The translations under genes were made by a program, and so were the position numbers. Shown piece by piece: positions 2,830-20,000 of a DNA stretch of 20,000 nucleotides. Source of the stretch: an uncultured virus (IMG/VR IMGVR_UViG_3300018424_000012) (Duplodnaviria; Heunggongvirae; Uroviricota; Caudoviricetes); the IMG/VR virus record IMGVR_UViG_3300018424_000012; one strand, given 5' to 3'. Every line of letters starts with the position of its first letter. Positions within the stretch are counted from its first letter, which is position 1. The notes under the pieces are model-generated. The model had not been told where the DNA came from. It made no database searches and saw only the letters and a list, made by a program, of their open reading frames with translations.

Positions 2830-3081
2830 TTATTGTTCTTCAAGTTTCTTTTGCAACTTGCGCCAGCGTCTTACTGCTTCTTTTTTCTTACGCTGTTTCT
2901 TTTCGGATGGTTTTTCAAATTGCTTACGCATCTTCAGTTCTTTGAGTACTCCTGCTTTCTGCACTTTCTTCTTAAAGATACGCATTGCTTTCTCTAGATT
3001 ACCATCTCTAACAGTAACAGTTAATCCCTCATCTTTAGGGGGTCTTTCTTTTCTTGTGTGTTTATAGTTTTTATAAGTCAT
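2830..3081 (-). CDS. rpsU: ribosomal protein bS21 with N-terminal extension
   Basis: V.VRDGNLEKAMRIFKKKVQKAGVLKELK.R..FEKPSEKKQRKKKEAVRR is the bS21 signature. Confidence 0.93.
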   Translation of the reverse strand: MTYKNYKHTRKERPPKDEGLTVTVRDGNLEKAMRIFKKKVQKAGVLKELKMRKQFEKPSEKKQRKKKEAVRRWRKLQKKLEEQ

Positions 3082-3087
3082 GCAATC

Positions 3088-3116
3088 AATATACTCTACT
3101 TATCTATCTTTGTCAA
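3088..3116 (-). promoter_or_regulatory. sigma70-type promoter directly upstream of rpsU
   Basis: TTGACA (3116-3111), 17 nt, TATATT (3093-3088). Confidence 0.65.
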
Positions 3117-7010: not shown

Positions 7011-7039
7011 TTGACATTCACCGAAATATGTCCTATAAT
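7011..7039 (+). promoter_or_regulatory. early sigma70 promoter
   Basis: TTGACA-17 nt-TATAAT perfect consensus. Confidence 0.9.
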
Positions 7040-11938: not shown

Positions 11939-12015
11939 CTGCCCGTAGTTCAGTTGGATAGAACAACGGATTTCTAATCCGTAGGTCGTGGGTTCGAATC
12001 CTACCGGGCAGGCCA
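11939..12015 (+). tRNA. tRNA-Arg(UCU)
   Basis: Acceptor CTGCCCG/CGGGCAG, anticodon arm ACGGA-TTTCTAA-TCCGT, GGTTCGAATCC T-arm, encoded CCA. Confidence 0.95.
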
Positions 12016-12018
12016 ATT

Positions 12019-12093
12019 CTTGCGGTGGCAGAAAGGTGATGCGACAGATTGCAAATCTGTTCTATGGAGGTTCGAATCCTCTCCGCAAGTCCA
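12019..12093 (+). tRNA. tRNA-Cys(GCA)
   Basis: Acceptor CTTGCGG/CCGCAAG, ACAGA-TTGCAAA-TCTGT, U discriminator, CCA. Confidence 0.93.
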
Positions 12094-12107
12094 TACGAGG
12101 AAATAAA

Positions 12108-12428
12108 ATGAGTGAAAATAGGTTCGGTAAAACCCGATTTGATTTAGAACATGCGATGAGTGATATTCGCAGTACAGCAACAGACATACAAACCGTTGCG
12201 GATATGATGTATGATAGTAGTCTCATTTATACTGAAGACCGCACACACACCGTTCTGAGTGGTCTAGCAGAAGTATTAGAAGCAAAGTGTGAGAATGCTG
12301 AGATTATTTTTAAGCAAGTCTTCGAACTAGATGAGTATGCTCCTCAATATTATAAAGATGAAGATGGATGTTTGCGTTGGCGAGATACAGACCAACCATT
12401 AGAAAGTCAGTTGTGGGATAAAGTTTAA
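12108..12428 (+). CDS. hypothetical protein within tRNA cluster
   Basis: GAGG RBS before ATG 12108 (MSENRFGK...); track start 11988 overlaps tRNAs. Confidence 0.75.
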   Translation: MSENRFGKTRFDLEHAMSDIRSTATDIQTVADMMYDSSLIYTEDRTHTVLSGLAEVLEAKCENAEIIFKQVFELDEYAPQYYKDEDGCLRWRDTDQPLESQLWDKV

Positions 12429-12505
12429 CGGAGATTAGCGCAGTCTGGTAGCGCATCTGCTTTGGGAGCAGAGGGTCGTTGGTTCGAATCCAGCATCTCC
12501 GACCA
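12429..12505 (+). tRNA. tRNA-Pro(UGG)
   Basis: Acceptor CGGAGAT/ATCTCCG, TCTGC-TTTGGGA-GCAGA, GGTTCGAATCC, CCA. Confidence 0.95.
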
Positions 12506-12509
12506 ATTT

Positions 12510-12584
12510 GCCGATGTAGCACAATGGTAGTGCAACTGATTTGTAATCAGTAGGTTGGGAGTTCAAATCTCTCCATCGGCACCA
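12510..12584 (+). tRNA. tRNA-Thr(UGU)
   Basis: Acceptor GCCGATG/CATCGGC, ACTGA-TTTGTAA-TCAGT, GTTCAAATC, CCA. Confidence 0.95.
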
Positions 12585-18454: not shown

Positions 18455-18626
18455 GTATACAGAACTGTTGCAAACACGGGTCACAAAAGAGCAGATGCAA
18501 ATGATAAAGAAAGAAAGTGCTTTGTTCAAAGAACCAATGAGTAAAATACTTCGTGATGCAATCTATCGTGGACTAGAAGAGAGGCGTCATTTTTACGCCG
18601 ACTTGAGAACCGACTTGAGAAAGTAA
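18447..18626 (+). CDS. putative ribbon-helix-helix (CopG/Arc-like) DNA-binding protein
   Basis: Not in track: MSKYTELLQTRVTKEQMQMIKKESALFKEPMSKILRDAIYRGLEERRHFYADLRTDLRK; strand LQTRV, helix, then S.ILR.AI helix. Confidence 0.65.
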   Translation: MSKYTELLQTRVTKEQMQMIKKESALFKEPMSKILRDAIYRGLEERRHFYADLRTDLRK

Positions 18627-18801
18627 AATTTTTGTCCGGAAAATTTTTTGGATTCCTTAACCCCCCATAGTGCATTTCAGTTTTCGTGCAGTGGTATGTT
18701 TGCCATAGTTTGAAGTGCGGAAATTGTGCCGGCGCTAAGAGAGCGACTAAAGGGGTCGCACACCACAAAAATATTACATATGTAGGGGGGTCTAACCTAC
18801 T

Positions 18802-18830
18802 AGTATATCACAGTACGTCACAGTTGTCAA
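18802..18830 (-). promoter_or_regulatory. leftward sigma70 promoter with no obvious downstream gene
   Basis: TTGACA (18830-18825)-17 nt-TATACT (18807-18802). Confidence 0.8.
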
Positions 18831-18864
18831 CAGTTATTTTTCAGTGGCGTGCAGTTAATCCCTC

Positions 18865-19232: not shown

Positions 19233-19427
19233 TTAACCTTTCATAATAAACAGTGCGCCTAGAGCAGTCGCACCAATTCCCATTGAGAAGTACGCAAGTG
19301 TCTGACCTATTGTCATTGCGTTCTCCATACACTTACCATCACAGTCAGCACCAGCAGTACCGAGTACTATAAAAATGCCAACAAAAACAAGCAGATAACC
19401 AATCATCTTACTTAGATACAAATGCAT
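19233..19427 (-). CDS. two-helix membrane protein
   Basis: GAGG RBS; two hydrophobic segments flanking DCDGKC loop. Confidence 0.78.
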   Translation of the reverse strand: MHLYLSKMIGYLLVFVGIFIVLGTAGADCDGKCMENAMTIGQTLAYFSMGIGATALGALFIMKG

Positions 19428-19455
19428 AATAAACCTCTTCTCTCATTGTTCTTAT

Positions 19456-19484
19456 ACTATACCACAACGCAACGGTATTGTCAA
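19456..19484 (-). promoter_or_regulatory. early sigma70 promoter
   Basis: TTGACA (19484-19479)-17 nt-TATAGT (19461-19456), GAGAGAAGAGG leader. Confidence 0.85.
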
Positions 19485-19492
19485 GCACTATT

Positions 19493-19702
19493 TTACACTT
19501 TTGCCGTCCAATATTCGTTCCACTGTTCATTCGCTACTTCATCGATGATGTTACCAGCGATGTAATCAGGTAGCATTTCGTCAAGTTTTTCAATGAGTTC
19601 GCCTACATGCTCACACTCAGCAACAAGAGCATCAGTAATAGCATCGAATACGTCTTGCTCCATGGCAAGAGTTTTAATGGGTTTAGTCATATCGTAATTC
19701 AT
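19493..19702 (-). CDS. hypothetical acidic protein
   Basis: AAGGA RBS, 69 aa. Confidence 0.78.
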   Translation of the reverse strand: MNYDMTKPIKTLAMEQDVFDAITDALVAECEHVGELIEKLDEMLPDYIAGNIIDEVANEQWNEYWTAKV

Positions 19703-19723
19703 AATACATTCCTTTTAAAGTTC

Positions 19724-19809
19724 ATAGAGACTTGCAGTTCAATCTAGTATCGCGCCAGTTCTCCCTTAGGGACATGCAGTTAATCTAGCGATACGCCAGT
19801 AGTCTCTAT
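19724..19809 (-). repeat. pseudo-symmetric repeat / candidate structured leader RNA
   Basis: Direct repeats 19733-19759 and 19775-19800 with mutually complementary 7 nt cores, flanked by 9 bp inverted repeat. Confidence 0.75.
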
Positions 19810-19824
19810 CTCGACTATGTTTAT

Positions 19825-19853
19825 AGTATCGCATACTTTCTGGTAAATGTCGA
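19825..19853 (-). promoter_or_regulatory. probable sigma70 promoter upstream of the structured element
   Basis: TCGACA (19853-19848)-17 nt-GATACT (19830-19825), A-tracts upstream on - strand. Confidence 0.55.
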
Positions 19854-20000
19854 GTGTTTTTTTGCTTTTTTTTTAACTTTTTTTCGCTTTTTTCTCTTGA
19901 CACGGGCGCTCGTATGTGCGAAAAGCAGAGATGATATTCCCTATTATATTTAATTGCGTTATTTCGCCCTTTTGAGCAATTCATTCTTACCATATCTGTG

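Follow-up and report, generated by a model that had tools for sequence, protein, structure and literature searches.

What kind of element fills 86 nucleotides (nt) of leader between a promoter and a small open reading frame (ORF) in the DNA of an uncultured virus of the Caudoviricetes? The locus lies in IMG/VR record IMGVR_UViG_3300018424_000012 (Duplodnaviria; Heunggongvirae; Uroviricota), of which a stretch of 20,000 nt, hereafter the window, was analyzed. At minus-strand positions 19809-19724, two direct repeats with mutually complementary cores are enclosed by a short stem. An earlier note, made from the letters of the window, had proposed either a structured cis-regulatory RNA with two equivalent pockets or a tandem DNA operator or recombination site. 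Comparison with relatives argues for an RNA built of freely varying helices and nearly invariant junctions. On these comparisons the element is rated as a probable new family among the structured leader RNAs of phages, which are a known general kind. Its function is read tentatively, with a confidence a little short of even: as a modular 5′ leader, the element would offer at least two identical junction modules for a trans-acting factor to bind.

The minus strand of the window reads exactly as the earlier note had spelled it out, piece by piece, between 19809 and 19724 (Table 1), and a promoter scan recovers the probable promoter that it had placed at 19825-19853; the ORF that it had assigned to the leader (19493-19702) is present as well, with a 21-nt linker to the start codon. 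The outer 9-nt arms are 100% complementary, the two 7-nt cores are exact reverse complements of each other, and the 26/27-nt units differ only in these cores and in one extra G. The unit pattern ACTGG-N3-30-TAGA-N2-14-ACTGMA has two matches in the 20-kb window, both inside the element; 0.03 matches are expected from shuffled sequence, and none of 200 shuffles contained two. Folded singly, the element only mildly outperforms shuffles (z = -1.92; 9 of 200 shuffles fold equally well), so that the structure is really supported by its relatives and not by the one sequence on its own.

Such relatives were found by pattern scans, which located the element in six IMG/VR viral contigs and gave at least 118 loci in metagenomes, scored with a covariance model built here (R1). 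Among the matches listed, 37 of the 118 hold the element, placing it in at least 37 metagenome loci: 33 of these score 65-103 bits and four, of a three-unit type, 23-36 bits, while the rest of the 118 listed loci are single chance units at 25 bits or less. Among prokaryotes, 185,579 species were scanned at one genome apiece; the 32 loci obtained all lack the element, being single units that have no second unit close by and that score no more than 25.3 bits. Each of five viral records examined carries one copy. At lengths of 39-82 kb these records have completeness estimates of 22-47%, by which the whole phage genomes would measure about 110-180 kb. A search of the five for further modules returned none beyond the element, save one chance-like match, and six candidate single units with pairing flanks were not convincing.

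The structural case is carried by three helices: the outer stem P1, the helix P2 formed by the two cores, and the apical hairpin P3, which together make a rod. They were assessed in an alignment (A2) of 24 distinct two-unit elements, made with MAFFT, from which the three-unit type and two truncated copies were left out; several rows are close relatives, and the tested structure was derived from one member. Twenty-one of the 22 pairs of the rod changed on both sides while remaining paired (P1 9/9, P2 7/7, P3 5/6), and 90.9% of 504 cells are standard pairs, versus 58.4% in column shuffles. When the partners are slid by 1-3 columns, paired cells drop to 33.1-44.7% and the covariation score falls from 0.771, a value reached by none of 500 shuffles, to 0.065-0.145. 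Unrelated sequence versions number roughly ten or more for each of P1, the core helix, and P3. The strands that join them are constant: ACTGG, TAGA, and CTG are identical in 24/24 sequences in both units, and the near-invariant strands as a whole read ACUGGM, YUAGAU, and ACUGMA; roughly 18 invariant junction nt per module are framed by freely covarying helices. The three helices drawn in the earlier note from one sequence, and the equivalence of its two loops, are thus borne out among homologues, in which the stems vary while staying paired and the loop strands are invariant or nearly so.

The same data bear on the proposal that the repeats act at the level of DNA, as a tandem operator for a DNA-binding protein, as a site of recombination, or, when single-stranded, as a hairpin or cruciform. 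The direct repeats, 26-27 bp long, do adjoin the promoter, a gene of winged-helix fold lies in the cluster, and the transcribed strand has 21 A·C cells against 3 G·U cells, by which the opposite strand would pair slightly better. A double-stranded operator or recombination site, however, leaves the covariation of the cores as pairing partners unexplained, as it does that of P1 and P3. The spacing of the units varies among relatives, the element lies in every case downstream of the -10 hexamer, inside the presumed transcribed leader, and G·U pairs occur inside P1 in two lineages on the transcribed strand. A DNA-level site is scarcely credible in this light. With only three G·U cells, a wobble-based test of the strand is weak, and the strand call comes mainly from the orientation of promoter and ORF.

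Natural variants show how much of the module can change around its constant strands. In six sequences a hairpin is inserted in unit 2 between UAGAU and ACUG (AUC/GAU in five, ACUC/GAGU in one), so that a three-way junction replaces the internal loop. The three-unit type (locus L041 and its copies) has a longer P3, which encloses, in this order, ACUGAA, a capped hairpin, ACUGGA, a 7-nt loop, and UAGAUUAA. Read around the junction, this inner module has the same cyclic strand order as the standard one, and its entry helix sits where the other clade inserts the optional hairpin; judged from this one sequence type, the third module is apparently a circular permutation. Units are spaced 38-42 nt apart in two-unit elements and 49 and 28 nt apart in the three-unit type. 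Locus L099 has two complete elements within one leader, L145/L170 have two elements behind two successive promoters, and the number of modules per leader is 2, 3, or 4.

A conserved junction core whose helices can be open or capped at different positions might also suit an element for RNA processing. It would be a new self-cleaving ribozyme or be cut by a ribonuclease of host or phage, for instance ribonuclease III (RNase III), and cleavage would shorten the leader and define where the early messenger RNA (mRNA) begins. The hairpin insert and the apparently permuted module resemble the variation of hammerhead and twister ribozymes, and the sporadic distribution, with presence or absence in close relatives and occasional tandem copies, would fit as well. 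RNase III-cut irregular hairpins with internal loops also lie between the early promoters and first gene of T7 and in the lambda N leader. The loops here, however, are sequence-invariant and, at 6 x 13 nt, large enough to break the long duplex needed by RNase III; duplicated modules within one body are atypical of known self-cleavers; and no Rfam ribozyme matches at expectation values (E) up to 10 in the window or up to 1 in eight variant loci. Processing is on balance distinctly unlikely.

The setting of the element is conserved across loci. In 26 of 31 loci a promoter match found by script ends 12-32 nt ahead of it. The remaining five comprise the second element of a tandem, two that are cut off, and two with near-consensus promoters by eye (TTGCAA...TATAAT in L103 and TTGTGG-17-TATAAT in L165). 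Behind the element, 22/31 loci have an ORF that carries a Shine-Dalgarno-like site and begins at a distance of 14-38 nt, mostly 16-22 nt, and in L129 and L148, beyond these 22, the spacing fits by eye. The leader position between promoter and ribosome-binding site (RBS) first suggested for the window hence recurs in its relatives. At least five unrelated families, of 33-114 amino acids (aa), are represented among the ORFs downstream, none with a Pfam or PHROG match, which indicates that the element goes with promoter and leader and not with one protein.

A position directly after strong early promoters, with sometimes another promoter and not an ORF following, would also suit a put-like cis-acting antitermination RNA or a nut-like site for loading an antiterminator; by its position the element may resemble HK022 put and lambda nut. 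No terminator-like site is predicted, however, on the minus strand from the element to 18990, the end of the three-gene cluster, and each gene there has its own promoter. The tight spacing to the start codon would be unexpected as well, and antitermination is very improbable.

Ten leaders were folded. In all ten the RBS is unpaired with the element (mean unpaired probability 0.43-0.70), which folds as an independent domain. The lack of RBS pairing, combined with that of a minus-strand terminator, is less in keeping with a classical riboswitch than with the action of a bound factor. A site for a trans-acting factor is further suggested by invariant junctions set among free helices, by the repetition of modules, by the absence of a switch platform, by the fixed distance to the RBS, and by independence from the downstream protein. 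In the mechanism proposed, host sigma-70 RNA polymerase would transcribe the element from its strong promoter, at the 5′ end of an early phage mRNA. Its body would consist of two copies, or in some relatives three or four, of one junction module (ACUGGM/YUAGAU/ACUGMA), held in opposite orientation by P1, P2, and P3, whose sequence is free, to give a pseudo-two-fold-symmetric body. The invariant module would be the recognition site, and the factor would most probably be a protein, encoded by phage or host, that forms dimers or multimers, a multimer being the simplest fit. Because the distance from the end of the element to the start codon hardly varies (16-22 nt), occupancy of the element could control the small early ORF behind it, at the level of translation initiation or stability. 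A highly expressed leader could also titrate the factor.

The modules could instead bind a small molecule, either at two sites or as one bridging symmetric ligand, and alter expression of the early ORF in the manner of a riboswitch aptamer. About 18 invariant junction nt per module amid covarying helices are the usual signature of a ligand pocket, and a pseudo-two-fold architecture, a module that a hairpin insert makes into a three-way junction, and a location in the 5′ untranslated region (UTR) would all be in keeping with one. The leaders nevertheless display no expression platform, given the RBS, which is unpaired with the element in 10/10 of them, and the missing minus-strand terminator. 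The genes downstream are unrelated tiny ORFans with no metabolic theme, copy number varies among 2, 3, and 4 modules, close relatives do without the element, and no Rfam riboswitch model matches. An aptamer of this kind is unlikely.

It is also conceivable that no ligand is involved, and that a stable 5′ domain shields the mRNA from decay at its 5′ end or aids ribosome loading. Such a passive structural leader is consistent with the placement of the element about 9 nt from the probable transcription start and at a fixed short distance from the RBS, with its independent folding, and with the short, purine-rich nature of the other leaders of the phage. Simple protection would need neither the roughly 36 unpaired nt that are kept invariant despite complete turnover of the helices nor the duplicated modules, and this explanation is improbable to about the same degree as processing.

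It is somewhat unlikely that the invariant module forms either a hitherto unknown pocket for small molecules or a catalytic core of a new kind; the idea deserves some weight on account of the ~18 invariant junction nt, the free helices, the optional third helix, and the apparently permuted copy. A pocket would define a new pseudo-symmetric aptamer class in phage immediate-early leaders, sensing, for instance, a symmetric host nucleotide signal made on infection; a catalytic core would define a new class of self-cleaving ribozyme with naturally permuted forms. Riboswitches, ribozymes, and protein-RNA control circuits have in the past been discovered among structured RNAs in which a core is conserved and covariation is strong. 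The present one is small (86 nt), has exceptional compensatory support, and comes with natural two-, three-, and four-module forms and element-less controls. It would act at the very start of infection by large phages, uncultured and of marine and estuarine origin, a poorly understood period that involves many small genes of unknown function. Naming the binder of the module would yield a new code by which protein recognizes RNA in early phage gene control, or else a new fold for ligand binding or catalysis.

Several observations weigh against the reading of the element as a modular rod presented to a factor ahead of an early gene. In L145a and L137 what comes after the element is a further promoter, and the ORF of L134 begins 114 nt downstream, so that a pure translational-operator role cannot hold for these loci. 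In L020, in L238, and in a contig of sequencing run X19, the same promoter type and gene family are combined with short purine-rich leaders without the element, which is therefore dispensable. The structure is not unique: RNAalifold keeps P1 and P3 and pairs each unit locally, CUGG with YUAG, and nearest-neighbor energies do not separate this local-stem model from the rod. A·C mismatches, always in terminal core pairs, occupy 11/150 cells of the core helix. Finally, the co-occurrence expected of one candidate partner, a 79-aa winged-helix protein encoded nearby, failed (4/68 loci), and it is not supported in that role. As far as the sequences indicate, the element is a discrete, dispensable cassette in the typical early leader of these phages.

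In the local-stem model, the pairing between cores would become a loop-loop kiss inside a four-way junction. Three of the four pairs of the local CUGG/YUAG stem never vary, and the fourth is G-C in 19, G-U in 4, and G-A in 1 of the sequences in unit 1, and G-C in 18 and G-U in 6 in unit 2. The rod is favored by covariation of the terminal core pairs, in which U as the last core base is matched by A in 10/10 cells, with one A-U in addition. The local stem is favored by a last core base that is a pyrimidine in 47/48 units and by the inner module of the three-unit type, which has no core partner and can be closed only through CUGG/AUAG. The two folds fit the data about equally well.

The 79-aa protein is the sole candidate in the operon; its structure model is confidently a winged helix (predicted local distance difference test score, pLDDT, 89.2). 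The top Foldseek matches are all to DNA binders, namely the winged helices of forkhead, Fur, MarR, and Orc1 proteins, but are weak at E 0.046-0.25, with no match at E 0.001 or below, and no Pfam family scores above threshold. Its family occurs at 68 viral loci, with the element within 2.5 kb only in the four already known, and the three-unit type has no winged-helix gene within 1.5 kb downstream. It is thus a candidate partner and not a supported one. For the rest of the cluster behind the 69-aa ORF (the 64-aa and 79-aa ORFs), no specific coupling to the element was found.

The absence of a named family, noted at the outset, is upheld by Rfam 15 (4227 models, family gathering thresholds), in which the whole window matches only four transfer RNAs (tRNAs) and no family matches the element. 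Positions 19600-20000, searched at E up to 10, gave one unrelated small nucleolar RNA model (15.8 bits, on the other strand and outside the element), and the eight variant loci, at E up to 1, one unrelated match. Neither the ribozyme models (hammerhead, twister, twister-sister, pistol, hatchet, hairpin, and hepatitis delta virus-like) nor those of the cyclic di-AMP riboswitch (ydaO) and guanidine-II match. A full-text literature search found no description of the motif. A catalogue of 10,006 viral candidate RNAs was published in 2023 (PMC10690425); three strings searched in six of its supplementary files gave no match, and the motif may be listed there unnamed in other parts.

The closest published architecture is that of anti-CRISPR operons, in which Aca1 and Aca2 bind RNA motifs that lie within the 5′ UTR, directly after the transcription start, with a conserved position of the start codon (PMC13551039). 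Those motifs resemble the element in following a strong early phage promoter, in standing directly after the start at a conserved distance from the start codon, as the element also does, and in being linked to small, diverse ORFans downstream and to a cluster gene for a small protein of nucleic-acid-binding fold, here the winged helix. The Aca motifs are by contrast simple hairpins resembling a DNA operator, whereas the element has a two-module body with large invariant junction strands and no matching inverted repeat is seen in its promoter. Nor does a co-encoded regulator, of helix-turn-helix or ribbon-helix-helix type as for Aca motifs, travel with the element, the winged-helix family accompanying it at 4/68 loci, and no anti-defense function is known for the genes downstream.

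In the translational operator of Escherichia coli thrS, two equivalent modules lie near the RBS, and binding of a symmetric homodimer competes with the ribosome. This operator may be the closest symmetric precedent, since it too is a leader just upstream of an RBS with two equivalent recognition modules. Its modules mimic tRNA anticodon arms, whereas those here are junctions or internal loops without recognized mimicry. Pseudo-two-fold symmetry with two equivalent conserved sites is likewise a feature of ydaO and guanidine-II, and the latter, with two similar hairpins touching through their loops, would resemble the local-stem model of the element; these riboswitches differ from it in having no sequence or model similarity to it, in its lack of an expression platform, and in its setting, a phage early leader with ORFans. 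Toxin-antitoxin repeats of the ToxI type (type III), with the pseudo-ToxI of phages, are short, promoter-driven tandem direct repeats ahead of a protein gene that can occur in phages. The repeats of ToxI are identical, however, and are processed by a downstream-encoded ToxN-type endoribonuclease. A ToxIN-like system was rejected: the unit cores here differ, pair, and covary, and the downstream proteins, of 53-114 aa, have no Pfam or PHROG family, of ToxN/AbiEii type or otherwise. Likenesses to a strand of hairpin ribozyme loop B, to the translational enhancer of T7 gene 10, and to CRISPR repeats are not supported by any model match.

Table 1. Positions of the element and of neighboring features in the window.
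Feature	Position	Strand	Basis or remark
A-rich tract upstream of -35 hexamer	19857..19893	-	Plus-strand T-run repeat; UP-element-like role presumed
Sigma-70-type promoter, TCGACA-17-GATACT with TG extended -10	19853-19825	-	Promoter scan; relatives with TTGACA at the same place
P1, 5′ strand, ATAGAGACT (RNA form AUAGAGACU)	19809-19801	-	Perfect 9-nt inverted repeat; 9/9 pairs changed on both sides in relatives
Conserved strand S1 of unit 1, ACUGGC	19800-19795	-	ACUGG invariant 24/24; sixth base A or C
Core 1, GUAUCGC, pairing with core 2 to form helix P2	19794-19788	-	7/7 pairs changed on both sides; 92.7% of cells paired
Conserved strands S2-S3 of unit 1, TAGATTAACTGCA (RNA form UAGAUUAACUGCA)	19787-19775	-	Invariant alignment columns
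Apical hairpin P3, UG UCCC UAA GGGA GA	19774-19760	-	5/6 pairs changed on both sides; length and sequence vary in relatives
Conserved strand S1 of unit 2, ACUGGC	19759-19754	-	Alignment of relatives
Core 2, GCGAUAC, partner of core 1	19753-19747	-	Covariation
Conserved strands S2-S3 of unit 2, TAGATTGAACTGCA (RNA form UAGAUUGAACUGCA)	19746-19733	-	Alignment; six relatives with hairpin inserted between UAGAU and ACUG
P1, 3′ strand, AGTCTCTAT (RNA form AGUCUCUAU)	19732-19724	-	Inverted repeat and covariation
21-nt linker with Shine-Dalgarno-like AAAGGAA	19703-19723	-	Sequence; unpaired with the element in folds of 10 leaders
69-aa ORF, small acidic four-helix protein	19702-19493	-	Usual gene behind the element in clade 1; ORF list and AlphaFold2 model
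64-aa membrane-like ORF	19427-19233	-	Own promoter at 19484-19456
79-aa winged-helix-fold ORF	19229-18990	-	Structure model; end of conserved small-gene cluster

From the position of the -10 hexamer, transcription would start near 19818, giving a leader of 116 nt of which the element makes up 86. A-tracts comparable with that of the window precede the promoter in related loci. The 69-aa protein has no Pfam or PHROG family; its AlphaFold2 model is a small helical bundle (pLDDT 85) without a structural match (best E 4.2). The cluster is conserved in clade 1, where it comprises 69-aa, sometimes 48-aa, 60-64-aa membrane-like, and 79-82-aa proteins. Two shared words at the locus were considered and dropped. 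An 11-mer, GATTAACTGCA, is repeated at 18859 behind another promoter; about 0.7 such repeats would be expected by chance by our own estimate (~76 eleven-mers, 40 kb). A 9-mer, GCGATACTA, is common to core 2 and the -10 region; in relatives the same element occurs with a different promoter and the same promoter with a different core.

Six RNA sequencing runs contain part of positions 19300-20000. In four, which are contigs, the ORFs between 18900 and about 19660 are covered and 19714-19787 is uncovered; the absence of this segment from contigs says nothing on transcription of the element. The contig of run X19 joins 19704 to 19818 by 28 other letters and is read only as a probable relative without the element, nothing more. 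Fourteen DNA runs from salt marsh or freshwater metagenomes each contain 0.61-0.78 of the words sampled from 19300-20000, which suggests an estuarine or marsh habitat.

Searches of cultured phages did not find the element. No blastn match was obtained with 601 nt or with 106 nt of the window among 50,697 deposited phage genomes, and a three-unit query gave only weak, unrelated matches in cultured phages. Of a clade-2 query, only the promoter part matched (L147 562-596; 35 nt, 88.6%), in 299 Vibrio phage records with genomes of about 114 kb (e.g. OZ195730.1) and at three places per record; the covariance model found no element in one such 114-kb genome. The promoter match is a weak hint that clade-2 phages have Vibrio-like hosts. 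Proteins of the window (337 and 69 aa) and the 114-aa protein of L134 had no tblastn match in cultured phages, and matches to PhoH are widespread and uninformative.

Elsewhere in the window, many small ORFs lie behind promoters close to the TTGACA-17-TATAAT consensus, with leaders that are short and rich in purines (AGAGAGAAAG-like), for example at 7011, 8740, 14391, and 17421 on the plus strand and at 19484, 18893, 18830, and 3116 on the minus strand; one leader of this sort seems to have received the element as an insert. Upstream of its promoter, a block at 19895-19990 of the minus strand (…AAAAGGGCGAA…TTCGCACATACGAGCGCC…GTCAAG…), inside a non-coding gap of ~400 nt, recurs in L005, L010, and the element-less L238. 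A second stretch of the minus strand, at approximately 18620-18830, begins with a consensus promoter (18830-18802) followed by ~170 nt without a convincing ORF; it has a long-range CCCCCC...GGGGGG complement, ends in a U-rich tail, and has no Rfam match, and by an alignment with rough coordinates most of its sequence is conserved in L017. This stretch may specify a small non-coding RNA; its consensus fold was uninformative. Four tRNA genes are clustered at 11939-12581 of the plus strand, and the window also encodes PhoH, thymidylate synthase, two 2-oxoglutarate-Fe(II) oxygenases, and an endonuclease V-like protein. Behind the consensus promoter at 3116 lies an 83-aa homologue of ribosomal protein S21 (2830-3081, minus strand; Pfam Ribosomal_S21, E 4.6e-19, 68.3 bits), which has an N-terminal extension of about 20 aa.

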